DNA of 28,061 nt from a virus (taxonomy: Duplodnaviria > Heunggongvirae > Uroviricota > Caudoviricetes), in the IMG/VR virus record IMGVR_UViG_3300036956_000151. One strand, given 5' to 3'. Positions 2,619 through 17,812 of this stretch are shown here, in pieces. Both the position numbers and the translations under genes were made by a program. How positions within the stretch are numbered: position 1 is the stretch's first letter; every line of letters starts with the position of its first letter. A model generated the notes under the pieces. The model did no database searches and was not told where the DNA came from. It worked only from the letters and a program-made list of their open reading frames with translations.

Positions 2619-2656
2619 GTCGCCCCCGTCGCCAGCAGATACCCCATCAGCAAACC

Positions 2657-3016: not shown

Positions 3017-3053
3017 TCTGTCCGTAGTGGGTACTAAACTTCAGGCGACATCT

Positions 3054-3371: not shown

Positions 3372-3580
3372 GGTGGCTGCTCCTTGTGTGCGGTGATGTT
3401 CTCCGCAACCCCTTCCTACGGGGGCGGCGGAACCGTGCGGGGCTAGGAATACCGGACACAAGGAACCGGCCAGCCTCGCGGCTGCCCCACACGGCCCGCC
3501 ATTGAACAGGCGTCGCCATGCTTACCGACGTAAAAAAACCGCTTGCGCGGCCCTGTCGGCCTTGTGATTTCCGGGTTCCT
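3372..3580 (-). promoter_or_regulatory. Conserved ~200-bp structured non-coding leader (module 1), homologous to 15029-15235 in element B; possible promoter/5'-UTR or small RNA
   Basis: Alignable by eye with element B (shared GTTCTCCGC, GAACCGTGC, CCATGCTTACCGACGTAAAAAAACCGC-type blocks); conserved stems with compensatory changes; ends in SD plus ATG. Confidence 0.4.
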
Positions 3581-3760
3581 ACGCCCGCCCCTCTGTTTCG
3601 GGGGAAACTGAATCATGGGGCAGGCCGCTCGTTTCAGTCAATATAAAAATGATAATGAAATAGATTGGCTTGCCATAAATTTCGCTTGTACCATCGGCAT
3701 ACGACCACGGGCGTCTCGCAAGATGCAGACTGGCGCTCGCTCAAGACACAAGAGGCCCAC

Positions 3761-4735
3761 ATGAAGCGATTTGTTGTCATCCTCGGAGTATTGATGCTTG
3801 GCGGCTGCGCTACCGCCTATAAGCCTGAAGGTCACGGCGGAGGTTATACCGACGCTAGGTATGGCCCAAACCTCTTTGCAGTCACCGTGCGGGCCAACGG
3901 CTATACATCTTCTGACCGTGCAACAGAGCTGGCAATGCTACGAAGCGCGGAGCTTACATTGCAGAATGGATTCACCCATTTCGTCATCGCCGAGAGGGCT
4001 CAAGAGGCAAAGACCAGCACATTCAGCATGCCGACAACCACTTACACGACCGGAAATATCAACACGCAAGGAAATGCCGCTTACTTGAACGCCCAGACAA
4101 CAACTACAGGCGGGCAAACCTTCAATATTTCGAAGCCTCGCGTTTATTACAAAATAGAGTGTTACCGCAGTCAGCCCGACAGAGCCCTCGGGCTCGCTTA
4201 CGACGCCCGTGCAGTCTGCGAATCGCTTGGCAGCAAGTACGGCGTTGATTGCCAATCTCTCATCGCCACCAATCTCAAGCCTACCCATTCCAATGCCGGC
4301 GAAGTGCGTGCGGAGCTGTCCGCCGACCTGCCAGCCGGCTGGCAACGGCAAACTCTTTCTGACGAACTAGCGCAAAGAGGGGGAAGGCTGTTTGCCACTA
4401 ACAAGACCATAGACGCTGGGGCCTTGGTTTCGATGAGCAAACGGTCTGAAATTGTCGACACAGTCGTTTACGCCAAATCATTGAGAGCAAACCAAGCGAG
4501 CCTCATCGATAAAAGCGAGTGGTCTGAACTATCTGAAATCACCATAAACGGTCGTCGAGCATGGAAATTCTGGGTCACAGGCCTCTCAAAACGCGGCATG
4601 CAGGTTCAGTACCTAGGGACCGTTATTGAAGGCGAGTCACAGATGATTTACGTGAATACCTGGACTTCAAAGAAGAACTTTGACGATAACCGCACTGCTC
4701 TGGAGTCTCTCGCTGGCAGCTTTTCAGGCCTTTAG
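3761..4735 (+). CDS. Predicted lipoprotein, 324 aa, unknown function; low-GC cargo gene
   Basis: MKRFVVILGVLMLGGCATAYK (signal peptide with LGGC lipobox); AGAGG SD; GC visibly lower (~50%) than surroundings; Thr/Asn-rich linker segment. Confidence 0.8.
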   Translation: MKRFVVILGVLMLGGCATAYKPEGHGGGYTDARYGPNLFAVTVRANGYTSSDRATELAMLRSAELTLQNGFTHFVIAERAQEAKTSTFSMPTTTYTTGNINTQGNAAYLNAQTTTTGGQTFNISKPRVYYKIECYRSQPDRALGLAYDARAVCESLGSKYGVDCQSLIATNLKPTHSNAGEVRAELSADLPAGWQRQTLSDELAQRGGRLFATNKTIDAGALVSMSKRSEIVDTVVYAKSLRANQASLIDKSEWSELSEITINGRRAWKFWVTGLSKRGMQVQYLGTVIEGESQMIYVNTWTSKKNFDDNRTALESLAGSFSGL

Positions 4736-4768
4736 GCAGCGCAAGCGACGCCCGACCCCAAAGCGGCT

Positions 4769-4796
4769 ACGCGTGAAAGTGGCGTCTTTCACGCGT
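4769..4796. repeat. Palindromic hairpin repeat ACGCGTGAAAG-N6-CTTTCACGCGT; second copy at 5429-5456
   Basis: 11-bp perfect stems; two direct copies ~660 bp apart bracketing the repeat-rich block. Confidence 0.6.
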
Positions 4797-4907
4797 AACG
4801 ACGGGGCCAAGGGGAGGCCTCGTAGTCGGCTGGGTTGGCGATGAGCGGGGGAGAAGCAGGCTTGGTTTCCAGGGTCGGTTTCCAGCAGAACAGACCTTTT
4901 TCGCCTC

Positions 4908-4977
4908 CTGAAACCTGAACATCTTTCAGCATTCGCCGTCATGCCGTGCGCTTTTCTGTGCGCGTTGCCGGCTGCAT
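4908..4977. repeat. ~65-bp direct repeat (TGAACATCTTTCAGCAT...GTGCGCTTT...TTGCCGG), second copy 5148-5217; iteron-like
   Basis: Two copies ~240 bp apart read directly. Confidence 0.55.
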
Positions 4978-5260
4978 TACATCGAGGACCGGGCCAGCCA
5001 TGCGGTCGATGGCCACCTTGTGTTGTTCTTCAGGATTCAGGATTCAGCCGGGCCGGCACAGTGCTAGCACCGGGCTTGCCCGGTACTGGGGCTGCTTCGC
5101 ACTGCGGCCTGACGTGAAGACGCCCTCCCGCCCGGTCGTTTTGCTTCGTGAAAAGTGAACATCTTTCAGCATCGCATCGGGATGCTGTGCGCTTTCGCGT
5201 GCGGATTGCCGGAATCGGGGCAGGGCCAGTGCCGTCCATCTTCTGGACGCCATCGGTAGC

Positions 5261-5308
5261 GCCGATTTCAGCGCCGATTGACCGGCCGATTGACCGGCCG
5301 ATTGGCTG
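5261..5308. repeat. 12-bp tandem repeat GCCGATTGACCG, about four units, outer units degenerate
   Basis: GCCGATTTCAGC GCCGATTGACCG GCCGATTGACCG GCCGATTGGCTG. Confidence 0.6.
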
Positions 5309-5428
5309 CGCACCGAGCTGCGTACCACTGCCCTGCGTACCCGACTGCCGACGAAGGCCACGCCGCCAGCAGCGGCCACCAGTTCCAGAAAAGCGGCCTA
5401 CTCGCCAGCGTAGAGCTAGTAGCGGCCA

Positions 5429-5456
5429 CGCGTAAAAGTCGCGCCTTTCACGCGTG
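5429..5456. repeat. Second copy of the palindromic hairpin repeat (ACGCGTAAAAG-N6-CTTTCACGCGT)
   Basis: See 4769-4796. Confidence 0.6.
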
Positions 5457-5471
5457 ACGACGCGTGCGAGG

Positions 5472-5499
5472 GGAAGGAAGGAAGGAAGGAAGGAAGGAA
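5472..5499. repeat. (GGAA)7 tetranucleotide microsatellite
   Basis: Seven perfect GGAA units. Confidence 0.9.
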
Positions 5500-5771
5500 C
5501 TCTCTACGAGCGCGTTTGATGCGCCTGGCTACCTGCGCTTCCCTCAGACACGCAGTGCGTTCTTCGGTCTCCAGACGGGCGAGTGCACAGGCCATCCGGG
5601 CCAGGGTCAGAACTTACTGTTTCAGGCTGGCGGATTCTCGTTCCAGGGCGGCGAGTCGTTCAGCCTCCCCAAAACTCCCCAAAACCCCCCATTTATGGGT
5701 GCCGTCCTCCCCAAAACTCCCCACACCACCTTTAAGAGGTGGGGGGAAATGGGGACCATGTGGGGAATGGG

Positions 5772-7745
5772 TTACTTGAGCCACAGCCAGCCCTCCCGAA
5801 GGACGATGCAGCCACGGTTCACAAGTCCGGTAATGGCAAGCTGCGCCCTGTAACGTTTCTGGTCCGGGTCACATGCAAGGCGGGCGCGGGTCTTGTCGAT
5901 AGCCTCTTCCAGTTCAACGCAGGGCCGGCCAGGAGGTCCGCCAGCTTCCCCGAAGTGCCGCGACTCTTTCAGCAGGTCGCGCAGTGCGTCGAGGATGATT
6001 CGCTGATTCCCGCCGGTCGGCAGCTTCACCCGCCCCACGGCATCGGCGGCGCGCTCTTCGGGAACGACGCAGCAGCTTGTGATTTCGTCGCCGTCCTCGT
6101 CGGCCCCGATTTCCACCACTTCCAGCCGAAACGGTTTTCCCAGGTCGTCATTGCCATCCTTGCTCTTCGCGGCCGTCCATTCCCGGCGGTCGTCGGTGCG
6201 GCTCACCTCGATGGCGGCATCAAGCGCAGCGTGAAGGCTGGAATGCCCCCGCAGGCCCTTGGACGCATCCTTGCCGGTGTGATGCACCAGCAGCACCAGC
6301 CCGCCAAGCTCCGCCTGTAGCGCCTTCGTCGCGGCGATGATTTCGCCCATTGCGGCGGAGTCGTTCTCGTCGGCACCCGGCGCGGCGCGGTTCAGCGTGT
6401 CGAGGGCCAACACGCCACCCGAGTAACCGGCAGCGCGGGCGGCGCTCACAAGGTCGGCGCGGTCGGCAGCTTTGCGGATGTCGAGCGGTTGCAGCAGGAA
6501 GCGGAATGCGCCGGCAAGTGGGCCGTGTTTCTCTTGGTGCGCCTGGACGCGTTGCGAGATGCCGGCCTCACCCTCAAGGGCAACATACAGCACTGGGGCG
6601 GCCTTCACGCGGCACCCGAACCACGGCCGGCCAGCGGCGACAGCGGCGAGCATGTCGAGCGCCAGGAAGGATTTGCCGGACCCGCTTGGGCCATACAACG
6701 CGGCAATCCCTTCCTCCGGGAGCACACCACGCACCCGCCAGCGGACAGGGGGCAGCGCGGCCAGTTCAGACGGTGCCAGCAGCCGGAAGCGTTGCGAGTG
6801 CTTCTTCGGATTGGCCAGCAGTGCGGCCAGGGCGTCGAGGCCGTCCCGCTGGTGCATGTCGTTGGCGTCAAAGTTGGCGGGCGAGCCTTCCGGCATTTCC
6901 ACCCATGCGGCGGCGGTGTCCTTGGCGATGCGGGCGCAATGCGACTCCTTGCCGGCATCGGCCACCAACACCCGGCGGGCCAGCGGGTAGCGGTCGGCCA
7001 GCGCCTTGGATGCGGCTTCCATCCGGCCGGCACCGAAGCAGACCGCGGCCGGCGCGTTCGCGGCCTGGTGGCAGCTCCACGCCTGCCCGACGCCCTCGCA
7101 CAGGTAGAGCGTGACGCCTGCGCCCTGGTGCGGGATGCGCCCCACCACGAACAGGCCGTCCATCGGCAGGCCGGGGGCGTTCAGTTTCTTGCCATCGGCC
7201 GGCGGGATGAATTGCGCGCTCTTCAGGGTGCCGTCAATCGCGTAGCACGGCACCACGAGATAGCCGGCCACCGCCTCGCGGGCGATGGTCAGCGGGCCGC
7301 CATAGACGCGCAGGCCGGCGGGTAGGCCATGCTTGCGGGCAATGTAGCCGTGTTCCGCCGTCGCTGGTGCGCAGGATGCCCACAGGGCGGCCACGTCGAG
7401 CGGCGGAGCCTTGGACGGGGCTTCGTGCATCCGGCGCTCGGTCGTGCGTTGTGGGCGGTTCTGGTAAGTCTGGCGCGGTGCGTCGTCGCTCCATCCAGCG
7501 GCGCGGGCCAGTGCGAAGAGCGTACCGGCCTGGATGCCGCCATCCTCGCGGATGCTCCGCCAGACGGCGCGTGCGTCGGCCTCGTTGCGATAGTTGCCGG
7601 CTCCGGCGCTCCAGTCATGGAAGTCCTCGAAGTCGAGGCCGGCAGCCTTTGCAGCCATGCCAGCCCGGACCCATTCGGCGCGTTCGGCACCGGGGTCGAG
7701 GGCGTGCAAGGCAAAGCGGGCGCGGTCAAACTCGCGGGCATCCAT
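5772..7745 (-). CDS. Primase-helicase-type replication protein, 657 aa (PriCT-like N-terminus, Toprim-like centre, RecA-type ATPase C-terminus); ORF-track N-terminal 71 aa rejected
   Basis: MDAREFDRARFALHALDP...GLDFEDFHDWSAG; CEGVGQAW and VLVADAGKE; Walker A YGPSGSGKSFLALD and VLLVHHTGKD; ATG overlaps upstream stop (ATGA). Confidence 0.85.
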   Translation of the reverse strand: MDAREFDRARFALHALDPGAERAEWVRAGMAAKAAGLDFEDFHDWSAGAGNYRNEADARAVWRSIREDGGIQAGTLFALARAAGWSDDAPRQTYQNRPQRTTERRMHEAPSKAPPLDVAALWASCAPATAEHGYIARKHGLPAGLRVYGGPLTIAREAVAGYLVVPCYAIDGTLKSAQFIPPADGKKLNAPGLPMDGLFVVGRIPHQGAGVTLYLCEGVGQAWSCHQAANAPAAVCFGAGRMEAASKALADRYPLARRVLVADAGKESHCARIAKDTAAAWVEMPEGSPANFDANDMHQRDGLDALAALLANPKKHSQRFRLLAPSELAALPPVRWRVRGVLPEEGIAALYGPSGSGKSFLALDMLAAVAAGRPWFGCRVKAAPVLYVALEGEAGISQRVQAHQEKHGPLAGAFRFLLQPLDIRKAADRADLVSAARAAGYSGGVLALDTLNRAAPGADENDSAAMGEIIAATKALQAELGGLVLLVHHTGKDASKGLRGHSSLHAALDAAIEVSRTDDRREWTAAKSKDGNDDLGKPFRLEVVEIGADEDGDEITSCCVVPEERAADAVGRVKLPTGGNQRIILDALRDLLKESRHFGEAGGPPGRPCVELEEAIDKTRARLACDPDQKRYRAQLAITGLVNRGCIVLREGWLWLK

Positions 7746-8194
7746 CACATCACCCCCAGCACGCGCACGAAGGCCGCGACAACGGCGGCGGTCACGGATG
7801 CAGCGGCGAAGACAACGAGCGCGTCGAGGCTGATGGAACCGCGTTGCTGTCGTGCGTTCAGGGCGGCAGCGGTTGCCGGGTGCTGGCGGTCGAGCGCGTA
7901 CTCGGTGATTGTGCTGCGGCAATGGGGGCGGCGGATGTCGCGCTTGCAAAACGCCCACCCGCCATACTCCAGCGACTTAACTGACGCGGCCAGCCGCCAC
8001 CCGTCGCGGTAGTCGGCCTGGTTCTGCGGGCCGGTCAGCAGCGCCTGAAGGGCTTCGTAAGCCCGGGTGTTGTCGTTCGGCCAGCTTGCAGCTTCAACAG
8101 GCGGCAGCGTCTCGGGAAAGAGGTCTTGGGCGTTATAATGGCGAGGCTTGTCCAGGGCGCTCGACTTCTTTTTGGGGGTCGGGCGCTTTTTCAT
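7745..8194 (-). CDS. Hypothetical protein, 149 aa, basic N-terminus and hydrophobic C-terminal helix; coupled to primase gene
   Basis: ATGA overlaps at both ends. Confidence 0.6.
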   Translation of the reverse strand: MKKRPTPKKKSSALDKPRHYNAQDLFPETLPPVEAASWPNDNTRAYEALQALLTGPQNQADYRDGWRLAASVKSLEYGGWAFCKRDIRRPHCRSTITEYALDRQHPATAAALNARQQRGSISLDALVVFAAASVTAAVVAAFVRVLGVM

Positions 8195-8520
8195 GCCGCA
8201 CCAGCCTTTCGGGCCTTCGCTTCGACGAGCGCCATTTCATTGGCAGCGAACTCCTGACCTGCGCTGCCGGCGGCCTCAATGACTTCGACCGGCAGGCGGT
8301 ACTGCGCGAAGGCGCACGACTCGCCGAAGCGGTTGGGACGTTGGATAGTCTCCTTCGCGACGCCCCAGCCCCATTTGGTCAGGAGGAAAACGACGGCGGC
8401 AGTCCGGTAGATGCCCAGCGTCCTCCAGCTTGCAATGGGGCCAATGGCATTGCCAGCCAGAAACGCAGCGAGCAGGCGGGCGCTCTGGGTGCCGTGCTTG
8501 GGGTAGGTGCCGGCCATCAT
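8191..8520 (-). CDS. Hypothetical protein, 109 aa
   Basis: Start overlaps upstream stop (TAATG); stop overlaps downstream start (ATGA). Confidence 0.6.
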   Translation of the reverse strand: MMAGTYPKHGTQSARLLAAFLAGNAIGPIASWRTLGIYRTAAVVFLLTKWGWGVAKETIQRPNRFGESCAFAQYRLPVEVIEAAGSAGQEFAANEMALVEAKARKAGAA

Positions 8521-8750
8521 TACGCCACCTCGCCAGAGGTAAGGGCCTCAACGGCCGCGGCGTCCCACAGCAAGAAGCGGTTGCGGCACTTGACCGGGCG
8601 CAGGCCGAAGTAATGCCCGTCACGGCACAGGGCGGCGCGCAAGGTCTGCGGGCGCACCTTCAGGACGGCGGCGGCCTCAATGGTGGAGTAGTTGCGCAGG
8701 ATGGACGCGATGTCCGTGCGCTTGGTGGTGGGTGTGTTTTGGTGTTGCAT
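8520..8750 (-). CDS. Small HTH DNA-binding protein, 76 aa, AlpA/excisionase-like; first gene of the replication operon
   Basis: STIEAAAVLKVRPQTLRAALCRDGHYFGLRPVKCRNRFLLWDAAAVEAL; AGGAGA SD; same motif pattern as the element B gene at 23916-24098. Confidence 0.7.
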   Translation of the reverse strand: MQHQNTPTTKRTDIASILRNYSTIEAAAVLKVRPQTLRAALCRDGHYFGLRPVKCRNRFLLWDAAAVEALTSGEVA

Positions 8751-8843
8751 TCGCTGGTTCTCCTGCTCGGAAAACCACCGTTGAGAGTCGCCGGATGCAA
8801 CTCAATCAACGCTGGCGAACGCAATGTGTTGCGCCGAAGTCTA

Positions 8844-8859
8844 TTAACAGCCGGCTGTT
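8844..8859. promoter_or_regulatory. Perfect 16-bp palindrome TAACAGCCGGCTGTTA in the promoter region of the element A replication operon
   Basis: Lies between the stop at 8863 and the HTH gene start at 8750. Confidence 0.35.
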
Positions 8860-8862
8860 ATG

Positions 8863-9456
8863 TTACCCGCCATTTCCAAGATGCTGATTTTTAAGGGTCT
8901 TTAGGCTGTTTAGAAATTTGCGCTCTTCGCTACCCCCCTCGGTTCTAAGTCCGTGCTCGTCAGTGAATACAACATACCCCGCGTCGCGCTGCACGACTCC
9001 ACGGCTCTCCAGTTTGTCCAGCATATCCGATGCAGTCAGGAGTCTGTTCTTGTCCCATATGGCCTTTGCCTCTAGTCGCCAGCGGATAGTAGCGGGCCGT
9101 CCTCCTTTGCGTACGACACGCTTCTGCGACGCGGACCTAGCCTGCTGTGCTCTTGCTGCTGCGGCGTAATGCTGCATCATCGGAGACAAGGGACCGACAG
9201 CAAGAATGGCAGACCTTGCAGCCGCAACGGACGCGGCGTGCGCAGCATCAACCATTGGCTGCATCCACTGACGCGTTTTTTCAGGCCACGTCTCCCTTAG
9301 AAGTCCAAGAGGCGGCTCCTGCAAAGGTAGGGTCAGCGAGCTTCTCAGCACCGACTCGAACACGGCGAGCTGGATTTCCTCGGCCCCGCGCCTGAAGTCA
9401 GCCGCGAATGATGCGGACTGACCTCCCATCCCCTGTTTTTTCAAATGCTTTGTCAT
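8863..9456 (-). CDS. Hypothetical protein, 197 aa; contains a GGRPA motif shared with the syntenic 252-aa protein of element B
   Basis: AAGGAG SD 6 nt upstream; directly preceded by conserved hairpin module 2. Confidence 0.6.
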   Translation of the reverse strand: MTKHLKKQGMGGQSASFAADFRRGAEEIQLAVFESVLRSSLTLPLQEPPLGLLRETWPEKTRQWMQPMVDAAHAASVAAARSAILAVGPLSPMMQHYAAAARAQQARSASQKRVVRKGGRPATIRWRLEAKAIWDKNRLLTASDMLDKLESRGVVQRDAGYVVFTDEHGLRTEGGSEERKFLNSLKTLKNQHLGNGG

Positions 9457-9477
9457 CGCGCTCCTTCAAGCGCCTTC

Positions 9478-9552
9478 AAAAGAGGCACCGCGCCAGGCGG
9501 GTGAAGGTTCCCGCTTTTCGGTTGGCCGACCTAGGCGCGGTGGTGGTACTCG
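9478..9552. terminator. Conserved nested-hairpin element (module 2): outer stem CACCGCGCC/GGCGCGGTG enclosing inner hairpin GCGGG-N8-CCCGC plus T4; terminator-like in both orientations; homologous copy at 25028-25104
   Basis: Near-identical flanks in both elements; inner stem differs by compensatory changes (GCGGG/CCCGC versus CGGGG/CCCCG). Confidence 0.45.
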
Positions 9553-9553
9553 G

Positions 9554-9934
9554 TCAGGCGGCAATCGCCTCATTCAAGGGACACGGCTGAATCAGCACGT
9601 CAGCCGGGAGGCCGAGGCCAGAAGACAGGCGGCGAATCATCGTCACCGACAGCGGGCGCGTCCGGTTCATGATGTCGGCCACCCTCCCCCGCGGGCCGAT
9701 GTAAGGCTCCAAGTCCTTGCGCGTCAATCCGCGGGACTCCATGACGTACTCAAGGAAGGCCACCGGGTCCGGGGCTTTAATCAGGAAGTGCGCCTTTTCG
9801 TAGGCTTCCACCAGCATGGCGAGCACCTCCAGGCGGTCGGCCTCGGGGCTTCCATCAGGGGCATCCCACAGGCGTTCGATATCGGCCAGGGCTTCGTTGT
9901 GCTCGGCTTCGGTTCGGATGGGCTTCAGTTCCAT
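9554..9934 (-). CDS. higA: HigA-family antitoxin (HTH), 126 aa
   Basis: Immediately downstream of the HigB-type toxin gene; AGGAG SD; C-terminal HTH-like segment LTRKDLEPYIGPRGRVADIMNRTRPLSVTMIRRL. Confidence 0.8.
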   Translation of the reverse strand: MELKPIRTEAEHNEALADIERLWDAPDGSPEADRLEVLAMLVEAYEKAHFLIKAPDPVAFLEYVMESRGLTRKDLEPYIGPRGRVADIMNRTRPLSVTMIRRLSSGLGLPADVLIQPCPLNEAIAA

Positions 9935-9942
9935 GGCGGCTC

Positions 9943-10236
9943 CTAGATGGTTTCAGCGTCTATCCGGTCGTACTCGGCATGAGTGCCCACGAAACGGATG
10001 AACATCATGGTGGAGGTGTAACGCACAGCCGCCACCAACCGGTAGTCATTGCCCTTGATGTTGAACACCACGCGGTTGTTCGCCAGAAAGCTGGCGTTCC
10101 GGTGCGCGGCCTTGATGTCGGCCGGGGTTTGCCAGGTGGCCCGGCTTGCCTCGGCGTACCAACCACGCAAAGGGGTTTCGGCTTGCGGATGCTTCTCCCA
10201 AAACTCGCGCAGTGCTCGCAGTGCAATGATGTGCAT
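9943..10236 (-). CDS. higB: HigB-family type II toxin (mRNA interferase), 97 aa
   Basis: MHIIALRALREFWEKHP...NNRVVFNIKGNDYRLVAAVRY...IRFVGTHAEYDRIDAETI; toxin-first order. Confidence 0.85.
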   Translation of the reverse strand: MHIIALRALREFWEKHPQAETPLRGWYAEASRATWQTPADIKAAHRNASFLANNRVVFNIKGNDYRLVAAVRYTSTMMFIRFVGTHAEYDRIDAETI

Positions 10237-10319
10237 GACTCAATCTAGCATGTTACCGTTTTGGTAGCAAACACTCAGGCTTTCACCACCCGCAGCCCGG
10301 CCGCCTGCTCTTCGCCCGG

Positions 10320-10604
10320 TCAGGCGGCGATGCGTGCCACGGGTGCCCGGTCCTTGGCGCGCTCGCCGGCTGTCCAGAGGTCGCGCTGCGTTTGCAGGCG
10401 CAGCCAGTAGCCGGGCGAGGTGCCTAGCGCCTCGTGCAGGCGCAGGTCCATATCGGCGGTGACGGCGGCATGCCCGTGCAGGATGCGGGACAACATCACC
10501 CGGCTGATGCCCACATGGGCGGCAAAGGCGGTCACGCTCATATCGAGGTCTTCCAGCCAGCCGGCCAGGATTTCGCCAGGGGTTGAAGGGTCGTGCATGT
10601 CCAT
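10320..10604 (-). CDS. HigA-like antitoxin (XRE-type HTH), 94 aa
   Basis: PGEILAGWLEDLDMSVTAFAAHVGISRVMLSRILHG...ITADMDLRLHEALGTSPGYWLRLQTQRDL; follows the killer-protein toxin gene. Confidence 0.8.
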   Translation of the reverse strand: MDMHDPSTPGEILAGWLEDLDMSVTAFAAHVGISRVMLSRILHGHAAVTADMDLRLHEALGTSPGYWLRLQTQRDLWTAGERAKDRAPVARIAA

Positions 10605-10615
10605 GATGTCGGGCC

Positions 10616-10894
10616 TCAGTGGTAATCCAGATAGTCCAGCAGTTCCACGTTTCCGCCATCGAAGCGGAACACAAGCCGCCAGTTGGCTTGCACCGTCATG
10701 GCGAGGAAGCCGGCGCGGTCGCCGGACAGGCCATGCAGGCGCCAGGACGGGCGGGCGAGGTCTTCCGGGCCGGCGGCGGCGTTCAGGGCGGTCAGCATTT
10801 CCCGTAGGCGCTTGGCGTGAATCGGCTGAATGCCGGCCTGCTTGCCGGTCAGGAAGAAGGCTTCAAGCCCCTTGTGTCGGAACGATAGAATCAT
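10616..10894 (-). CDS. RelE/ParE-superfamily toxin of the HigB killer-protein type, 92 aa
   Basis: MILSFRHKGLEAFFLTGKQAGIQPIHAKRLREMLTALNAA...LLDYLDYH. Confidence 0.85.
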   Translation of the reverse strand: MILSFRHKGLEAFFLTGKQAGIQPIHAKRLREMLTALNAAAGPEDLARPSWRLHGLSGDRAGFLAMTVQANWRLVFRFDGGNVELLDYLDYH

Positions 10895-10898
10895 AGTC

Positions 10899-10917
10899 TG
10901 TAAATCATAGCTTTACA
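10899..10917. promoter_or_regulatory. Inverted repeat TGTAAA-N7-TTTACA upstream of the toxin gene; likely TA operator/promoter
   Basis: Between toxin start (10894) and integrase stop (10926). Confidence 0.4.
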
Positions 10918-10925
10918 ATGTCCGC

Positions 10926-12242
10926 TCAGGTCACAACCCGCAACCCAGGCGCCTGCCCCTCGTCCGGCTGCTCGATGCCGGCCTGCTCCAGAATCCAGCC
11001 CTCTATCTTGATGTGCCACAGGGTCAGCAGGTCGAGCGGCCGGCGGCGATAGTGCTTCTCGGCCAAGGCGCTGGGCTTGTGCCCCTGAATCTGCGCCACC
11101 ACGCCGACGGGCACCTCGCACCACTCCGCCAGGGTGCCGAAGGAGCGGCGCAGGTCATGCAGCGAGAATGGCGGCAGGCCGGCGGCTTCCATCGCTTTGC
11201 GCAGGGGTTTGAGGACTTCCACGATACGGCCATCCGCGGCCGCAGGGCTTGAGAACACCCACTCATTCCGGCGCGGCAGAGAGGCCAGCAGCGAGGCGAC
11301 GAAGGGCGTCAGCGGGATGATGCGGCCCTCTTCCTCCACCTTGTCGGCGATGTGCAGGGACTTCCATTGAAAATCCACGTCAGCCCATTTCAGGCCGGCC
11401 AGTTCCTCGCGCCTCGCGCCGGTCAGGAGCAAGGTTTGCAGGTAGGCGGCGTGCACCGGGTTCCCCAGCTTGCGGACATGCTCGAACCACAGCGGCAATT
11501 GTTCGCGGCGCAGGCTGTCGCCTTTGGTCTTCACCGCCTGCACTTGGTCCCGCACTTCGCTGGTGCGGCAGGCATCCGCACGAACGAGGCCGGCATACTC
11601 CGGGCGCTCGGCACACCAGCCAAGGAAGGCGCGCACGAGGCGGAATATCTTTGCGGCCTGCGTCGCCCCGCGGGCGTTGTTGTCCTGCATCCATGCCGTG
11701 ATGCGTGCCGGGGTCAGGTCCAATAGGCGCACATGCAGCAGCGGATGTACCATGCCGGGCAAAGTGTATTCCCCCTGCCCAGCCTTGCGCCCTCGCGTGA
11801 TGCGCTCGCCGCCGGGCTTTATGGCCTGTGCATGGTCGCGCTGTGAGGACTCGCCCCACTTGTGCGAGCGGGCCAGAACATAGGCGGCCCATGCCTCGCC
11901 AACGGTCACTTCCTGCCGTGCGGACTCTTCCCGCTTGGCCTCGATGGCGGCGCGCTTGTCGGCCTTCTCTTGGCGCGGGTCGATGCCTTGGTCAATCAGG
12001 GTTTGCAGGCGGCGGGCTTCGGCGCGGGCTGCGTCAATGCCCCACGCGCGCACGTCGCCAATCGTGATGCGAAGAGCCTTGCCGTTCAGGCGGCTTTGGA
12101 AGATGAACCCGCGCGCCTCGCTGCCGGGTGTGGCACGCACTGCGAGGCCGGGCGCTTCCGTGTCCCACAGGAAGGCTTGAGCGGTGCCGGTCGGGCATTC
12201 AAATTCGCGGATGCGGCCGGCGGTCAGCTTGTTGCGTGCCAT
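10926..12242 (-). CDS. int: Tyrosine recombinase, P4-type integrase (element A); ATG at 12242 preferred over the ORF-track start at 12248
   Basis: ~438 aa; catalytic-domain blocks LTGARREELAGL, HDLRRSFGT, HKPSALAEKHYRRR; GGAGAA SD; adjacent to att copy 2. Confidence 0.9.
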   Translation of the reverse strand: MARNKLTAGRIREFECPTGTAQAFLWDTEAPGLAVRATPGSEARGFIFQSRLNGKALRITIGDVRAWGIDAARAEARRLQTLIDQGIDPRQEKADKRAAIEAKREESARQEVTVGEAWAAYVLARSHKWGESSQRDHAQAIKPGGERITRGRKAGQGEYTLPGMVHPLLHVRLLDLTPARITAWMQDNNARGATQAAKIFRLVRAFLGWCAERPEYAGLVRADACRTSEVRDQVQAVKTKGDSLRREQLPLWFEHVRKLGNPVHAAYLQTLLLTGARREELAGLKWADVDFQWKSLHIADKVEEEGRIIPLTPFVASLLASLPRRNEWVFSSPAAADGRIVEVLKPLRKAMEAAGLPPFSLHDLRRSFGTLAEWCEVPVGVVAQIQGHKPSALAEKHYRRRPLDLLTLWHIKIEGWILEQAGIEQPDEGQAPGLRVVT

Positions 12243-12256
12243 GTTCAAGTTCTCCG

Positions 12257-12287
12257 TGTAAGCGGCTCATGTAAGCAGCTTGTAAGC
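12257..12287. promoter_or_regulatory. Three TGTAAGC heptamers (12257, 12270, 12281) upstream of the element A integrase; candidate arm-type sites
   Basis: Direct repeats read from sequence; same heptamer at the left end (2037-2055). Confidence 0.4.
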
Positions 12288-12406
12288 GGATTCTAGAACA
12301 CGCTTCAATTTCCATCAACGTCAAAAACGGAATGAATGCTTTATTTTCAATGCCTTGCTGTTTTTATGAAACGCTATTCAATGTCAAAAAACCCCGTAAC
12401 CATTCA

Positions 12407-12502
12407 ACTCATAATCGCTTGGTCGCTGGTTCAAGTCCAGCACGGCCCACCATACGTATCAAGCACTTAGGCCAGCCTCACGAGGGCTGGCCTTTTGCTT
12501 TC
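12407..12502 (+). repeat. att direct repeat copy 2 (junction between element A and element B); tRNA 3' half only, no 5' half
   Basis: ACTCATAATCGCTTGGTCGCTGGTTCAAGTCCAGCACGGCCCACCA plus terminator; preceded by unrelated AT-rich sequence. Confidence 0.85.
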
Positions 12503-12510
12503 CGGCGCCG

Positions 12511-12529
12511 TGTAGCCACCATGTAGCCA
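12511..12529. promoter_or_regulatory. Two TGTAGCCA octamers at left end of element B; candidate arm-type sites
   Basis: Same motif at 27389-27425 (three copies, one inverted) upstream of the element B integrase. Confidence 0.4.
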
Positions 12530-12582
12530 GATTCGAGAAGTCCGCACAACCACATACAAAAGGCCCCATGCTGGAAGCCGGT

Positions 12583-12691
12583 GGAGGGAGCTATCGGCCT
12601 CCCCTCCTCCGCCGTGAGTGCGTGATGGCTCCGTTTTGAGCCATCGTCAGCAACGGCCGAAAGTAAAGGGTGGGCAGATTGTGCCCACCCT
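12583..12691. other. Three consecutive GC-rich hairpins (12583-12607, 12624-12646, 12665-12691) between att copy 2 and the Rha-like fragment
   Basis: Inverted repeats GGAGGGAG/CTCCCCTCC, GATGGCTC/GAGCCATC, AAGGGTGGGCA/TGCCCACCCTT. Confidence 0.3.
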
Positions 12692-12698
12692 TGGCGGG

Positions 12699-12830
12699 TC
12701 AGCAGCTCATGGGCTTCTCCTCAATTTGAGGAGAAGCAATCACGCCGCGCTCAAGCAAGGTTTCGATGGTGCGCTTCACGTTGTCGTGACGCTTCGGCCT
12801 GGTGCCGGCATGGGCGACTGATGCGAACAT
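12699..12830 (-). pseudogene. Decayed Rha-like N-terminal fragment, 43 codons; lacks the usual N-terminal helix
   Basis: Translation ...RPKRHDNVKRTIETLLERGVIASPQIEEK matches the element A ORF at 2657-2803; below the 60-aa ORF-track cutoff. Confidence 0.35.
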
Positions 12831-12847
12831 TGCTCGGGTCAGAACGA

Positions 12848-12872
12848 AGGGTGTCGCTATTCCCGACACCCT
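12848..12872. promoter_or_regulatory. Palindrome AGGGTGTCG-N7-CGACACCCT just upstream of the Rha-like fragment
   Basis: Shares GGTGTC/GACACC half-sites with the palindromes at 2597-2618 and 15443-15466. Confidence 0.35.
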
Positions 12873-13071
12873 TTAAAACCTGGTGAACGTGGGGCCTCGT
12901 TCGCAGAACGACACGCCCGGCCGCCGAGGGCCTGCGTACTGTGCAGTCCCTCTCCGGGTCAGAACTTGGGCCTCGTTCGCAGAAACGGCACCTGATGCGA
13001 ATGAACTACTTCATAGCCCGCAAACCCCGCGTGCCCTAGGATGAAGGCTCCTTTTCTTTCCTGATAGATCT

Positions 13072-13260
13072 ATGGGTCCGATCTCCAAACCGTCCAGAAT
13101 CAGCCAATGGCGCGCCACCACTGCCGCCGGCGAAACCGAAGTCTTCAACCTCAAAATAATCGCCGACGACTGGGCGGGCGTCGGTGGCACGGTCGAAGCC
13201 GTGAATGCTGCCGACCAGAAGGCATTGCAAGGGGGTGGCAAAACACCACCCCATGAATGA
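13072..13260 (+). CDS. Possible small protein, 62 aa, unknown
   Basis: GC-rich third codon positions and non-repetitive composition; no clear SD. Confidence 0.25.
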   Translation: MGPISKPSRISQWRATTAAGETEVFNLKIIADDWAGVGGTVEAVNAADQKALQGGGKTPPHE

Positions 13261-13298
13261 GAACCCCGGCGCGTGACGGGGGCTGGTGGTGAGTCGCG

Positions 13299-13589
13299 TT
13301 ACTGGGTCCGTGCGTGGCCGCTGGGTGGCGGCAGAATGTCCGACAGGGGCAAACCCTGCGCCCAGGCGTGCAACTCGGTAAGAAGCCAGCCTATCCGGTT
13401 GCTCGACGTCTTGCGGGGCGCTGGGAACGTTCCCTTCAGCACCTGTGCGGCGATGTTCGACGGGCTGAGTCCCACAATCGTGCAGGTGGTGTCCCGGTCC
13501 ACGATGACAGGATCGATGTGAATCACCCTGGTGACCCGCAGCGTTCCGCCGCTGGGCGTGCACGCGGGGATCTTCTTCGGCCGTCCCAT
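13299..13589 (-). CDS. alpA: AlpA-family phage transcriptional regulator, 96 aa
   Basis: GLSPSNIAAQVLKGTFPAPRKTSSNRIGWLLTELHAWAQ fits the AlpA pattern; start coupled to upstream stop. Confidence 0.75.
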   Translation of the reverse strand: MGRPKKIPACTPSGGTLRVTRVIHIDPVIVDRDTTCTIVGLSPSNIAAQVLKGTFPAPRKTSSNRIGWLLTELHAWAQGLPLSDILPPPSGHARTQ

Positions 13590-13590
13590 T

Positions 13591-14058
13591 TCAGGTGCTC
13601 CCGGGTGCGTGGGCGGTCGCCTGGCGGCCACCAACGGCACGCAGTTCGTCGGAGAGGCTTAAGGCCTCCCGGGCGAGCGCCTGAAAGTCTGCCTGTGCTG
13701 GGGCCGACCCCGCAAGAAACTGATTGATCCTCCGCATGAGCGAATCTTGGCGCTGCTGGAGGTCCGCCAGGCCGGCAAGGATCACGTCCGCAAGGGGTGG
13801 GAGTTCTGCGCGATTCTCCCAGTCGTCAGCACGGCCGAGGAGGTAATCAGCTGAAACACCATAGACCCGCGCCGCATCGGCAAGCAGCTGGGGCGTGATT
13901 CCCTTTGGGTAGTTCGGATGCTCGGCGCGGGTCAAACGGGATGCACTCTTGATGCCAAGCCGCCGCGCGGCCTCGTCCGTGCCCAGGCATGCGATCTCGC
14001 GGGCGGATTTCAAGCGCTGGCCGACGATGCACTGCGCTACGGGTGGTCTCTTGCTCAT
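13591..14058 (-). CDS. XRE/Cro-CI-type HTH regulator, 155 aa
   Basis: HTH-like segment and motif ARVYGVSADYLLGRADD; paralogous to 20619-21212; AAGGA SD. Confidence 0.7.
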   Translation of the reverse strand: MSKRPPVAQCIVGQRLKSAREIACLGTDEAARRLGIKSASRLTRAEHPNYPKGITPQLLADAARVYGVSADYLLGRADDWENRAELPPLADVILAGLADLQQRQDSLMRRINQFLAGSAPAQADFQALAREALSLSDELRAVGGRQATAHAPGST

Positions 14059-14093
14059 GGTGGTGTCCTTCTCAATTCCAGCGTTTCAGGGGG

Positions 14094-14119
14094 CTGTGCG
14101 CCCGGTTGAAGGCGCACAG
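14094..14119. promoter_or_regulatory. Inverted repeat CTGTGCGCC-N8-GGCGCACAG between the 173-aa gene and the XRE regulator; hairpin or operator
   Basis: 9-bp perfect stems. Confidence 0.35.
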
Positions 14120-14135
14120 ATCCATCCCGCGGGTG

Positions 14136-14657
14136 TCAGGCGGCGTCGCGGCGATAGTTGCTGCCCACGTCTTCCGCTGTGCCGTTGACGAGATCCTGCA
14201 CGGTGCTGGCCATGTCGTGGATCGTCAGCAGGGTGCTATCGAGGTGCGGGCGCAGCGACTCAAGCTGGCCAGAGCCCGCGGCGGCCTTGGTGACCGCGGC
14301 AACGCCCGCGATCTTTCTTGCAGCCTCTTGAACGTAGAGATCCATCAGGTTAGCCGCGGTCTGCAGCTCACGAACCTTGGTCGGGGCGTTGCGGGAGGGG
14401 CAGAAGGCGTAGTCCGTGTCCTGGCAACCTACCACCGTGGCCTGTGCCTTGATATCTGCAGCGGAATCGCGAGCAAGGCCGATGATCGCGTCCATCGCGG
14501 TGCCAGTGCCGGCCGCATCGTCAGACTTAAGGGCGCCTTGTGCCGTGCGCACGAGGCCCATGATTGCGTCGGTGGCCTGTTGCGAATGGCGGTCAATCAG
14601 CTCGACGGTCTTCATCAGGGTGGCGAGGTTGGTGTTCTTGATGGTGGTGGTGGTCAT
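14136..14657 (-). CDS. Hypothetical protein, 173 aa, mostly helical
   Basis: GGAG SD; start 2 nt after upstream stop. Confidence 0.6.
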   Translation of the reverse strand: MTTTTIKNTNLATLMKTVELIDRHSQQATDAIMGLVRTAQGALKSDDAAGTGTAMDAIIGLARDSAADIKAQATVVGCQDTDYAFCPSRNAPTKVRELQTAANLMDLYVQEAARKIAGVAAVTKAAAGSGQLESLRPHLDSTLLTIHDMASTVQDLVNGTAEDVGSNYRRDAA

Positions 14658-14659
14658 GG

Positions 14660-15028
14660 TCAGGCGCTCCAGGCAAAGGAAAGACGATAGGCTGCTACGG
14701 GACCGGCAAGCCGGCGGATGGTGCGGTACATCGAGAGGGACGTGGCGAGGCGAGCGCGGCCGGGACGGCGCGCGGTGCGATCAGCGGCGGCGAGGGCCTG
14801 CTGTGCGGCCTCGAGCAGAGGGGCCGGCAGGAAGCTGTCAGCGCTGGTCGGACGCACGGGCGGGTAATCCATCGTCTCGGTGACGATGGCGCGCAGGGCG
14901 GACACGGGTGACGGTGCAGCAGGACGGGCACGGCCGATGCGGCGATGCGGGCCGCGAACAAGGGCGGGGCTGTGTTTGGGGCGTGAGGTGCTGCAGAGTG
15001 CGGGCGCACTGGGGGCGTGGGTAGCCAT
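14660..15028 (-). CDS. Possible protein, 122 aa, Pro/Ala/Arg-rich; start at the position homologous to the element A gene 3054-3371
   Basis: AAGGAA SD; low-complexity composition makes coding status uncertain. Confidence 0.35.
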   Translation of the reverse strand: MATHAPSAPALCSTSRPKHSPALVRGPHRRIGRARPAAPSPVSALRAIVTETMDYPPVRPTSADSFLPAPLLEAAQQALAAADRTARRPGRARLATSLSMYRTIRRLAGPVAAYRLSFAWSA

Positions 15029-15235
15029 GGTGATGTTCCTTATTTGCGGTCTTGTTCTCCGCTACCCAGCCGCCAAGCTGGGTGAGCAGAACCGTGCAGG
15101 TTGGCGGACCGGAATAAGGACCGGCAGGGTTTCCCCTCCCGCACGGCCCCGCCCAATGAGGCGATACCATGCTACGGACGTAAAAAAACCGCGCAGTGCG
15201 GCGGTTGTCCGCCTTATTTACCCGGGCCGCCAAGC
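15029..15235 (-). promoter_or_regulatory. Conserved structured leader (module 1), element B copy
   Basis: Homologous to 3372-3580; includes hairpin CCGC-N5-GCGG followed by A7 (terminator-like on the minus strand). Confidence 0.4.
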
Positions 15236-15442
15236 CCGTATCACCGTTGTTTGCAGCGACGAAAATATGATGCGCCTGGGCGCCGCTGGTGGTCAAGCAC
15301 TTATTTTGCATGTGTGGCGCCGGAGGGGAGGTGGACACATGAATCATGGGCGCCCGAGGACGGACACGGTAGGTGTCATTTCGGCCGGCGACACCCGCCT
15401 AAAATGGGTGGCCGCGGTAAGTCGAGCACGTCAGGCCGCCGA

Positions 15443-15466
15443 GGTGTCCTCAGTTTTGAGGACACC
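15443..15466. promoter_or_regulatory. Perfect palindrome GGTGTCCTC-AGTTTT-GAGGACACC; operator-like
   Basis: Homologous to the site upstream of the element A Rha-like ORF, but no Rha-like ORF follows here. Confidence 0.4.
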
Positions 15467-15553
15467 GTCACCAATGTGCAAATCTGCACAATATCCAGAC
15501 CCACGCGGCTGCCCTGGATGAAGCCGTCTGCGTCGCTTCTGAGTTTCATCGGA

Positions 15554-16459
15554 TCAGGCCTTCATGAAGGTGTCGAGCTGGGTGAAGGTCATCTGCAGCT
15601 CTGCCAAGGCGTCTTCGCGCCGGGACAAACTGAGCTCGAGGTTAGCCGGTCGAAAATTGCCGATATCCTCATAACCGCCGCGGTTGCTGCCCTTGGTCAC
15701 AAAGGCGTGCACGATCTTGATCCGCACCGCGTAATTTCCGGGAACTCCGACGGTGCCATCCTCGGCCGAGACGGCGGCTTGGTGATCGCGAAACCAGCGC
15801 TTGAGCGTGCCCACCTTGTCGTCGGTCGCCGTCATGCGCAGTTCCATCGGATCGCTTCCGGTGACTGCATCCAGCGTAGCCCCCCCGACCTTCCGTTTCT
15901 CGCCGGTGAGCGTGAAAGGCGCGTAATCCAGATCGGTCACGAACATATTGAAGGGCTGCGAGCTGTCACCCGAAAGTGCGCTTGACACCTCGATCAGGAA
16001 CAGATTCTTTCGGGCCCGCGCGGTGTTTATCGACTCCTCGAAGATCGTCCGGGCCTCAGTAGGGCTCAGGCCTCCGAAAAGGGGCGTAGGACGTCCCCAG
16101 TAGGTAGCCTGGGAAGACACCCCGCCCATACCCGGTATCAGCTTGTCCAGCGCCCCGGAATCGAGCAGGCGCATGCCGGCGCTGTTCCAGTCTCCGGCCA
16201 TCAGGTCGCCGGCAATCCGGCTTGCGGCATCGATCCGGCCGCGGAGCTTCATCGGGATGGCTTTGTTCACCTGCGCCATGGCGGCATTCTTCGCCATGCC
16301 AACACCAATATTGGCGACAGTGTTTGCCAGGATGCCACCGCCAAGCGCACCCGCCGCGCTCTTGGCTACGCTTCCCAGGGCGGAATCCAGGCTGGAAGAA
16401 ATTCCGCCCATCAAGCCCTTGGATGCGAGTGTCTTGCTCACGCCGTTATAGAGGGACAT
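15554..16459 (-). CDS. Hypothetical protein, 301 aa; N-terminal ~70 aa Gly/Ala/Ser-rich with glycine-zipper-like spacing, then a globular domain
   Basis: MSLYNGVSKTLASKGLMGGISSSLDSALGSVAKSAAGALGGGILANTVANIGVGMAKNAAMAQV...; start 5 nt after upstream stop. Confidence 0.65.
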   Translation of the reverse strand: MSLYNGVSKTLASKGLMGGISSSLDSALGSVAKSAAGALGGGILANTVANIGVGMAKNAAMAQVNKAIPMKLRGRIDAASRIAGDLMAGDWNSAGMRLLDSGALDKLIPGMGGVSSQATYWGRPTPLFGGLSPTEARTIFEESINTARARKNLFLIEVSSALSGDSSQPFNMFVTDLDYAPFTLTGEKRKVGGATLDAVTGSDPMELRMTATDDKVGTLKRWFRDHQAAVSAEDGTVGVPGNYAVRIKIVHAFVTKGSNRGGYEDIGNFRPANLELSLSRREDALAELQMTFTQLDTFMKA

Positions 16460-16464
16460 AGGCT

Positions 16465-16632
16465 TTACTCCCCGCTTCCGCCGAATCCGCCAGGCTTCTT
16501 CCCGCCCGGTGTGCCGCCGAATCCACCACCTCCACCACCACCACCAAACCCGCCTCCGCCGCCGGCACGCGTGAGGCTCTTTACGGGCTCGCCAAGCAGG
16601 AAGCCGGCGGCGTCGCTTCGGATCGCTGCCAT
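16465..16632 (-). CDS. Gly-rich small protein, 55 aa
   Basis: MAAIRSDAAGFLLGEPVKSLTRAGGGGGFGGGGGGGGFGGTPGGKKPGGFGGSGE; coupled at both ends (TGAcATG and TAAagcctATG); not in the ORF track because under 60 aa. Confidence 0.45.
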   Translation of the reverse strand: MAAIRSDAAGFLLGEPVKSLTRAGGGGGFGGGGGGGGFGGTPGGKKPGGFGGSGE

Positions 16633-16633
16633 G

Positions 16634-16900
16634 TCAGGTTTTCCCGGCAGGGCGTGCGGCGTCGAGAAGCGCGACGGCGGCGCCTACTCGAGCTTCGGCG
16701 GGGGCTGCAGGGTCTGCGGCCACCTCGGCCAGGGCGGCGACAGCAAGGGCGGCATGCTGGGCGGCGCGGCGCTGCAGGCCGGGTGAAGCCGGAGGGCGGC
16801 CGGCTCCGGTGCGGGCGCCGCCATGAGCGTTTGTCGTAGTGGGCATGCTTGAATCCTCGTGATGCCCGGGCGGCACGGCGGCCACCCGGTGGGAAATCAT
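16634..16900 (-). CDS. Possible protein, 88 aa, Ala/Pro-rich
   Basis: ATGA overlap with upstream gene; low-complexity composition. Confidence 0.35.
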   Translation of the reverse strand: MISHRVAAVPPGHHEDSSMPTTTNAHGGARTGAGRPPASPGLQRRAAQHAALAVAALAEVAADPAAPAEARVGAAVALLDAARPAGKT

Positions 16901-17800: not shown

Positions 17801-17812
17801 TTCGGGGCCTCA

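Follow-up and report, generated by a model that had tools for sequence, protein, structure and literature searches.

Why should two toxin-antitoxin (TA) modules stand directly one behind the other beside an integrase gene, and does such a stack reflect selection on the element that carries it? The locus that raises this question lies in a 28,061-nucleotide stretch of viral DNA (Caudoviricetes; IMG/VR record IMGVR_UViG_3300036956_000151), hereafter the window, which contains two genomic islands, A and B. An earlier note on this DNA had placed two different HigB/HigA-type pairs in tandem next to the integrase of island A and read their stacking as a sign of strong selection for island retention. 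The four open reading frames (ORFs) lie exactly where they had been predicted, on the minus strand (Table 1), and are two intact, unrelated, toxin-first type II HigBA operons of different families, named here HigBA1 and HigBA2. The stacking itself is a recent recombination product in the cargo slot of the island, not a conserved design. Taken together, the two pairs are probably complete, independently regulated operons that were stacked by a deletion in an island array and serve mainly in island retention.

The first pair is of the type known from plasmid Rts1 and Proteus vulgaris. HigB1 matches positions 2-91 of the 91-position profile PF05015 HigB-like_toxin (61.9 bits, cut-off 27; E 8.5e-17) and aligns end to end and gap-free with P. 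vulgaris HigB (PDB 4mct_B, E 2.4e-19). HigA1, a helix-turn-helix (HTH) protein, matches TIGR02607 antidote_HigA (99.8 bits, cut-off 47.7; E 5.6e-29) and the PDB entries 3cec (1.2e-15) and 4mcx_A, the latter being P. vulgaris HigA (7.7e-14). The earlier note had proposed to look for the catalytic residues of the toxins in an alignment, and all six (H54, N71, R73, D90, Y91, and H92) are kept in HigB1 at the same positions as in 4mct_B. In P. vulgaris HigB, His54, Arg73, Asp90, Tyr91, and His92 have shown or proposed roles in A-site mRNA cleavage (PMC5027501), and Asn71 determines adenosine specificity (PMC7781912). The genes are on the same strand with a gap of 11 nt, the toxin gene being the first. 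Besides the catalytic residues and the gene order, HigBA1 shares with the Rts1/P. vulgaris system (4MCT, 4MCX) the TIGR02607 antitoxin and a palindrome in the putative promoter region. However, Rts1 HigBA is found on a plasmid and has two operators (O1 and O2), whereas HigBA1 is on a chromosomal island, where one palindrome was seen. Moreover, and unlike Rts1, HigBA1 begins only 31 nt from the stop of the island A integrase, in line with the predicted adjacency, and has an uncertain promoter of its own.

The second pair is of the E. coli K-12 type (YgjN/YgjM; 5IFG), with which it shares the PF09907 toxin, the antitoxin layout, and the toxin-first order, here with a gap of 8 nt. HigB2 covers the whole PF09907 HigB_toxin profile (positions 1-74 of 74; 108.9 bits, cut-off 27; E 1.5e-31) and has PDB matches to E. 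coli K-12 HigB (5ifg_A, E 5.9e-11 over 92 residues) and to 5ycl_B (about 6e-11). It retains the FN(I/V)xGNxxR and THxEYD stretches common with E. coli HigB in the 5ifg_A alignment. HigA2 has an HTH_3 domain at residues 62-114 (23.4 bits, cut-off 23), and its close homologues are labelled “HigA family antitoxin” in the source annotations. The match of HigA2 to E. coli HigA (5ifg_B) is weak but co-linear (E 0.009, residues 6-111), and this weak similarity, together with a toxin start codon 5 nt past a putative -10 element, sets HigBA2 apart from the K-12 system. In three loci (L060-L062), the HigB2 homologue was called as a 180-aa ORF with a PF12161 HsdM_N match ahead of the toxin domain; in L060 it lies near a gene with a PF04851 ResIII domain, and the HsdM_N part may be a fusion or come from a mis-called start.

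Profile searches thus confirmed the family assignments of both pairs (PF05015 and TIGR02607 for the first, PF09907 and HTH_3 for the second). NCBIfam gave no match for HigB1, HigB2, or HigA2, so the assignment of these three rests on Pfam, PDB, PADLOC, and PHROGs. Between the two pairs, similarity of toxin to toxin or antitoxin to antitoxin was not detectable; the pairs are different indeed, and, as judged from this lack of resemblance, cross-neutralisation between them would be unlikely.

All four genes are under purifying selection, with more synonymous than non-synonymous changes. The HigB1 gene differs from six loci by 7-14 synonymous and no non-synonymous codon changes; these loci came from an exact-protein look-up, so the zero is partly by construction and the silent count is still informative. 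In HigA1, 9-25 synonymous changes stand against 2-5 non-synonymous ones. The HigBA2 genes were compared with two loci (L022 and L025) that were found via the integrase, independently of the HigB2 protein, and here the counts are 23-24 synonymous and 5-8 non-synonymous for HigB2, and 48 and 20-22, respectively, for HigA2. The antitoxin genes are more diverged than the toxin genes in these codon comparisons.

Each pair also has conserved control signals. The predicted operator-like palindrome ahead of HigB1 is present, and its half-sites are kept, some with one mismatch, in eight diverged copies (loci compared include L011, L013, L015, L018, L019, L020, and L036), in which the spacer reads GCTATGA, GCCTAGA, GCGAGGA, or TCTATGC. 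Constant half-sites around a variable spacer are what an operator bound by a dimeric HTH protein should show. A promoter scan gave a single sigma70-like match (TTGTAA-17-TATGAT, 10918-10890), which overlaps the palindrome and has its -10 on the HigB1 start codon, so either the higBA1 promoter is unusual or the operon is read from the integrase transcript. The putative HigB2 promoter was read by eye (8 of 12 to consensus, under the scanner threshold), the support for it being conservation: the TACC-N5-GGTA core of its inverted repeat is kept with the same geometry in L001, L002, L005, L022, L025, L059, and L063, and recurs in copies that are 12-25% diverged. One of these, a HigBA2 copy outside any island, amid housekeeping genes in a Competibacteraceae metagenome-assembled genome (MAG), has the repeat in perfect form (TGCTACC/GGTAGCA). 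A general inverted-repeat search reported neither operator because the arms are short; both were read by eye and then checked by conservation.

A GAGG motif lies 11 nt upstream of the HigA1 ATG and a GGAG motif precedes the HigA2 ATG, whereas the toxin genes have no such motif before their ATG, which would favour an excess of antitoxin despite the toxin-first order. The short distance from the putative -10 to the HigB2 ATG suggests that the higB2 mRNA is leaderless. Similarly, -10-like hexamers 5-8 nt before a toxin ATG, with no Shine-Dalgarno sequence, were seen at two places in the window (10242-10236 and 25990-25983) and in L022, L037, L059, and L063, suggesting that leaderless toxin mRNAs are a design common to many cassettes.

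The history of the stack can be read from a 45-nt integrase relic that forms a junction scar between the HigA1 stop and the higB2 promoter. Alignments and BLAST searches showed the relic to match, at 100% identity, the terminal 45 nt (with the stop) of the integrase gene of relatives that have a single pair. In these relatives, the higB2 promoter directly follows the integrase stop, and the relic of the window runs into the same promoter. The joint reads ...GCCGCCTGACCG|GGCGAAGAG..., with a 4-nt microhomology (ACCG) that is shared with the integrase sequence at the HigA1 stop. Compared with L001/L002, the integrase to the left of the relic is ~90% identical, and to the right of it HigB2 is 100% and HigA2 98-99% identical. 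This step in identity indicates that the element is a mosaic with its breakpoint at the relic.

The simplest path to such a mosaic would be a deletion in a tandem array of two islands, int_X-HigBA1-(rest of X)-att-int_Y-HigBA2-(rest of Y), where int is the integrase gene and att the attachment site. The deletion would have joined the HigA1 stop to the last 45 nt of int_Y; the att site, the X core, and almost the whole of int_Y would have been lost, while both TA modules were spared. On one side it would have ended precisely at the HigA1 stop, and on the other 45 nt short of the int_Y terminus, immediately ahead of the higB2 promoter. Tandem arrays at tRNA-Met do occur, as islands A and B in the window itself.

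The interval in which the stack arose is a variable slot, as the similarity between islands A and B is lost there: it stops at the 3' end of the integrase (10956 and 26071, respectively) and resumes exactly at the HigA2 stop (9557 and 25108). Two features go beyond what the earlier note had described: the corresponding slot of island B contains a third HigBA pair, and the site takes cassettes in general, with an int-alpA RNA as its boundary. To survey it, 65 loci were collected with exact-protein look-ups and with a scan for the integrase in which each species was represented by one genome, and most of them are from Zoogloea, Rhodocyclaceae, Azonexus, Aromatoleum, and related MAGs. The slot was delimited by the integrase stop and the Rfam int-alpA match, and three integrase-adjacent loci without an Rfam match (L024, L025, and L027) were included. 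The int-alpA RNA serves as slot boundary in 19 related loci (L001, L002, L013, L019, L021-L023, L026, L029, L032, L034, L035, L037, L040, L044, L045, L049, L050, and L056).

Among related elements the slot holds 0-3 cassettes, and 22 distinct states were found: 16 with at least one toxin-first pair and an Xre-type antitoxin, 2 empty, and 4 with small ORFs of no family (L023, L026, L040, and L049). Empty slots measure 16-29 nt (L029; L045/L050). HigBA2 occurs alone in the L001 type, L002/L005, and L025, with L001, L002, and L005-L010 being close relatives of island A that have HigBA2 only, and together with two small ORFs in L063. HigBA1 or a HigB1-like pair occupies the slot in L013 (a P2-like element), L027, L032, and L034, and HigBA1 with a 78-aa ORF in L019. 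Other loci have HigBA3 with or without an extra orphan HigA and an 84-aa ORF (island B, L021, and L044), a Gp49/RelE-type toxin with an HTH antitoxin (L022, L024, L035, and L037), or a DUF4258 protein with an HTH protein (L056). HigBA1 and HigBA2 are found together only in the window and in L003, L004, and L014, contigs that are 100% identical to it over 3.3 kb. That the stacking indicates strong selection for retention, as had been proposed, is thus not supported, because relatives have HigBA2 alone, a HigBA1-type pair alone, or an empty slot, and the double state, confined to identical contigs and marked by the relic, is one recent recombination product. In the plasmid collection, the pairs occurred only one at a time and never in combination, at no more than 68% identity over 50% of the query, and were annotated as HigB family toxin or as RelE/ParE toxin with HigA antitoxin; the phage collection gave no match to either pair.

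The HigBA1 cassette and the slot are common to two unrelated types of element. In the P2-like elements L011, L013, L015, and L018, which adjoin rluB-rimP-nusA and have gpA, a P2 capsid gene, Ogr/Delta, and tail genes, the HigB1 protein is identical and the cassette has ~95% DNA identity. HigB1 directly follows a different, 474-aa integrase there, and in L013 the cassette is followed by int-alpA RNA. In alignments, this integrase showed only general homology to that of island A, so that what the two element types share comes down essentially to the HigBA1 cassette. In L016 (4792-5749, GCA_030158595.1), HigB1 follows a 215-aa ORF whose 3' ~330 nt are 93-100% identical to the island A integrase, the rest being unrelated, and the cassette seems to have moved along with this integrase fragment.

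Each module is an ordinary HigBA. The value of the locus lies in the natural series of empty, single, double, and triple slots within one island family, and in an integrase-tail scar that shows how one stack formed; it offers a testable case of TA modules deciding which deletions a tandem island array survives.

With regard to function, the family assignments predict that the first gene of each operon encodes a small RelE-fold protein that cuts mRNA in the ribosomal A site, and the second an HTH protein with two tasks, toxin binding and repression of the operon through its palindromic operator. Ribosome-dependent mRNA cleavage has been described for HigB-family toxins (PMC5027501, PMC2814082, PMC11980606), and neutralisation and autorepression for HigA-type antitoxins (PMC12266136). 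Once the resupply of antitoxin ends, the toxin would arrest or kill the cell. By such post-segregational killing, the modules would most likely be fatal to cells that lose the island or delete it, with a possible side role in abortive infection. As such killing would counter-select deletions that remove a TA pair, survival of both modules is what an addiction model predicts, and in this modified form the retention idea of the earlier note would still hold. On this analysis, island retention together with protection against deletion is most likely the selective role. TA modules are known to keep excised islands and integrative and conjugative elements from loss, and two can cooperate, as reported for SGI1 (sgiAT; PMC5006074), CGI48 (HipAB; PMC8978831), and ICESa2603 (SezAT plus AbiE; PMC11062541). 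These cases have in common with the present island that TA modules are carried by an integrative element, although the TA families differ and a like role in the island is a prediction.

Several points weigh against island retention by two functional operons. Toxicity, neutralisation, antitoxin lability, and repression are all predicted from homology, and the catalytic residues of HigB2 can be judged only by the stretches conserved with E. coli HigB, as no published catalytic-residue list for the E. coli-type (PF09907) toxin was found in the accessible literature. The higBA1 promoter is uncertain, with a -10 over the start codon, and the operon may be read from the integrase transcript. A parental int_X-HigBA1 island is known only at ~89-92% identity (L019 and L020), with no exact donor. 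Many relatives have no TA module in the slot, and the modules are therefore dispensable for this type of island. Finally, the fast turnover at the slot is equally typical of defence hotspots.

This last point leads to the alternative that the modules are chiefly anti-phage cargo of a satellite-type hotspot, acting by abortive infection and selected by conflict among phage, satellite, and host rather than by retention, which we regard as a serious rival, though the less likely reading. HigB2 matches PADLOC PD-Lambda-2_A at positions 1-96 of 97 (E 4.3e-41), and HigA2 matches the N-terminal positions 1-120 of the 402 of PD-Lambda-2_B (E 2.4e-39). PD-lambda-2 is an abortive-infection defence system against lambda-vir (Vassallo et al., 2022, PMC9519451). 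However, its B protein, of which the HTH part resembles HigA2, has a C-terminal ImmA/IrrE-type peptidase domain and is the toxic protein, whereas Pfam finds no peptidase domain in HigA2. A third component, related to the P4 antitoxin, is required for defence (PMC9519451), but none is nearby, as PADLOC gave no match to it in the 197-aa ORF of island A or in the ORFs at 3665-4735 and 2004-2552. Membership of HigBA2 in PD-lambda-2 was rejected on these two grounds. HigB1, HigA1, HigB3, and HigA3 showed no significant match to any PADLOC system.

The setting of the slot also bears on an anti-phage role. P4-like satellites have their main defence hotspot between int and psu, where the TA-like gop-beta-cII is included, and P2-like phages have a minor one between int and gpA (PMC9122126, PMC13586616). 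As in these hotspots, the cargo beside the integrase is variable, is exchanged between element types, and turns over fast, and a P2-like element with int-alpA and C4 RNAs has an identical HigB1 at the corresponding site. The HigBA2 homologue of L060, with its ResIII-domain neighbour and HsdM_N match, is a further hint in this direction. The integrase-proximal site of int-alpA elements from wastewater Betaproteobacteria thus resembles the P4/P2 cargo hotspots of enterobacteria. On the other hand, the gene order of P4-like elements is int-psu-delta-sid, whereas here it is int-alpA-primase, with the slot bounded by an int-alpA RNA. Moreover, nearly all cargo here consists of small, toxin-first RelE-family TA pairs, in contrast to the broad mix in P4 hotspots (restriction-modification systems, retrons, etc.), and the phage-satellite nature of the islands is a presumption of the anti-phage account.

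Apart from the cargo, the boundaries of the cassettes are of interest. Wherever a cassette borders on the RNA flank or on a further cassette, it terminates, in most loci, in a motif of the form (GCC)GCC-TGA-CCGAG(C/T)A, also written (GCC)TGACCGAG(C/T)A, which supplies the last ORF with its TGA stop codon; antitoxins of unrelated families consequently share an Ala(-Ala)-stop ending. The motif follows HigA2 (as CTGACCGAGTA) and both cassettes of island B, and occurs three times in L044 (7991, 8322, and 8599). An ssrA-like ClpXP degron was considered as an explanation of the Ala-Ala C-termini, and was weakened by the finding that 72 of 120 close HigA2 homologues end in AA and nearly all in A, which points to the DNA junction GCC-TGA, not the dipeptide, as the conserved unit. 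Empty slots read int...GCC-TAA-CCGAGCAAT|RNA, and the motif is therefore the native integrase terminus plus flank. It could be a preferred crossover site or simply the outcome of repeated rounds of unequal exchange between the flank and integrase ends. Together with the int-alpA RNA boundary, the motif provides a lead on how such hotspots become loaded.

These junctions invite the proposal that the slot is a dedicated cassette-capture site, at which both pairs were captured by recombination (site-specific or through short homology) at (GCC)TGACCGAGCA, perhaps by the adjacent tyrosine integrase and in loose analogy to integrons. We consider this improbable. It accords with the presence of the motif, stop codon inside, behind cassettes of unrelated families and at internal junctions (island B and L044), as well as with its occurrence in empty slots. 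In addition, ~27 of the 38 exact matches to CTGACCGAG in 594 kb are at cassette ends, and HigBA2 copies outside islands end in GCCTGA|GGTC, without CCGAG. However, the junction between the two pairs of the window is not of the motif type: it consists of a truncated motif joined to the tail of an integrase gene, as is characteristic of an illegitimate deletion. The left boundaries of the cassettes show only weak similarity to the motif, the motif is unlike the tRNA-Met att repeat, and repeated unequal crossing-over between integrase termini and flanks would yield the same pattern. The broader form of the proposal, a capture locus common to unrelated Rhodocyclales elements (int-alpA-primase islands and P2-like elements) that would amount to a non-integron system for addiction and defence cassettes joined at that sequence, is equally hard to credit.

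Cassettes with small TA operons are also known from chromosomal integrons, the higBA of the Vibrio superintegron being an example. In such integrons, TA operons are arrayed next to a tyrosine recombinase and are thought to guard the array from deletion (PMC13108822). The present locus differs in having no attC sites, a phage-type, tRNA-targeting integrase, and a junction made of an integrase-tail relic. An integron-like attC reading was rejected accordingly, since no structured attC-like repeat separates the cassettes and only the 45-nt relic lies between the pairs; membership in integrons also fails because a single int-alpA motif stands at the array end and the integrase is of the phage type with Arm-DNA-bind_3.

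It is highly improbable that the pairs are without function today, as inert hitch-hikers or remnants in decay, because, although TA modules are often selfish and many sister islands do without them, all ORFs are full length against their profiles, the HigB1 catalytic residues are intact, synonymous changes exceed non-synonymous ones in all four genes, and operators and promoter geometry are conserved.

Table 1. Features of the cargo slot and its surroundings; positions are those of the whole window.
Feature	Position	Strand	Description
HigB1	10616-10894	-	92 aa; predicted ribosome-dependent mRNase toxin, Rts1 / P. vulgaris HigB type
HigA1	10320-10604	-	94-aa HTH antitoxin, predicted autorepressor
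Operator-like palindrome TGTAAA-N7-TTTACA	10899-10917	-	Perfect 6+6; ends 4 nt upstream of HigB1 ATG
HigB2	9943-10236	-	97 aa; E. coli K-12 HigB (YgjN) type toxin
HigA2	9554-9934	-	126-aa antitoxin; N-terminal helical part and C-terminal HTH
HigB2 promoter/operator (putative)	10242-10270	-	-35 TTGCTA 10270-10265; -10 TAGATT 10247-10242
HigB2 imperfect inverted repeat TGCTACC-N5-GGTAACA	10269-10251	-	By-eye reading
45-nt integrase relic	10275-10319	-	Junction scar between HigA1 stop and higB2 promoter
Cassette junction motif CTGACCGAGTA	9547-9557	-	TGA is the HigA2 stop codon
Junction motifs, island B	25375-25385; 25098-25108	-	At both cassettes
Island A integrase	10926-12248	-	Tyrosine integrase, 440 aa; stop codon is left slot boundary
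int-alpA RNA (Rfam RF02996), island A	9473-9541	-	71.9 bits, gathering 35.8; right slot boundary
int-alpA RNA (RF02996), island B	25023-25092	-	Second copy
tRNA-Met	1902-1978		Intact; downstream of rpoD
119-nt repeat, first copy	1933-2051		tRNA-Met 3' part and ~70 nt downstream (hairpin region)
119-nt repeat, second copy	12407-12525	+	93% identity; boundary between islands A and B
119-nt repeat, third copy	27557-27675		82% identity
Island A	~1933-12406		~10.5 kb; integrase at far end
Island B	~12453-27556		~15 kb; integrase at far end
HigB3	25702-25983	-	Island B; PF05015, E 2.7e-17
HigA3	25382-25690	-	Island B; HTH_3, E 2.3e-8
84-aa ORF	25105-25359	-	No family; island B slot, beside HigBA3 (slot content 25105-25983)
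C4-type antisense RNA (RF01695)	3420-3506; 15078-15160	-	One per island

The window as a whole probably comes from a Zoogloea or other Rhodocyclales host. The tRNA-Met repeat is present in three copies, indicating that the two islands are integrated in tandem. Island A runs in the order int, HigBA1, HigBA2, int-alpA RNA, 197-aa ORF, alpA-like HTH protein, HTH_39 protein, 149-aa ORF, and PriCT_2/AAA_25 primase. In L004, the DNA of which is 100% identical here, the integrase gene has Arm-DNA-bind_3 (PF13356) and Phage_integrase (PF00589) domains, and at the DNA level the island A integrase is ~80% identical to that of island B and ~90% to those of the single-pair relatives. The alpA-like protein has a weak HTH_17 match (E 8e-4, under the Pfam cut-off). 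With int, an alpA-like regulator, a primase, and the 119-nt flanking repeats, the island has the layout of a phage-inducible chromosomal island (PICI), an int-alpA-primase order having been given for PICIs of Gram-negative bacteria (PMC13612085). No psu, sid, delta, or terminase-type match was found among the island ORFs scanned, most of the island genes being without a family.

The third pair, in island B, is related to the first: HigB3 is 32% identical to HigB1, with Glu at the position of His54, and HigA3 is 37% identical to HigA1.

The int-alpA RNA of island A begins 12 nt past the HigA2 stop and leaves 17 nt to the start of the 197-aa ORF ahead of alpA; it could act in cis on this ORF and on alpA. 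An alternative pairing (arms 9463-9475 and 9495-9507) overlaps the GAAGGAG before the start of this ORF at 9456. C4-type RNA, along with isrK, also occurs in L011 and L013, two of the P2-like elements with HigBA1. Direct repeats of 34 nt near the island A primase gene (4899-4932, 5139-5172, and 2253-2286) may be iteron-like, and a further 34-nt repeat is common to islands A and B (2585-2618 and 15432-15465).

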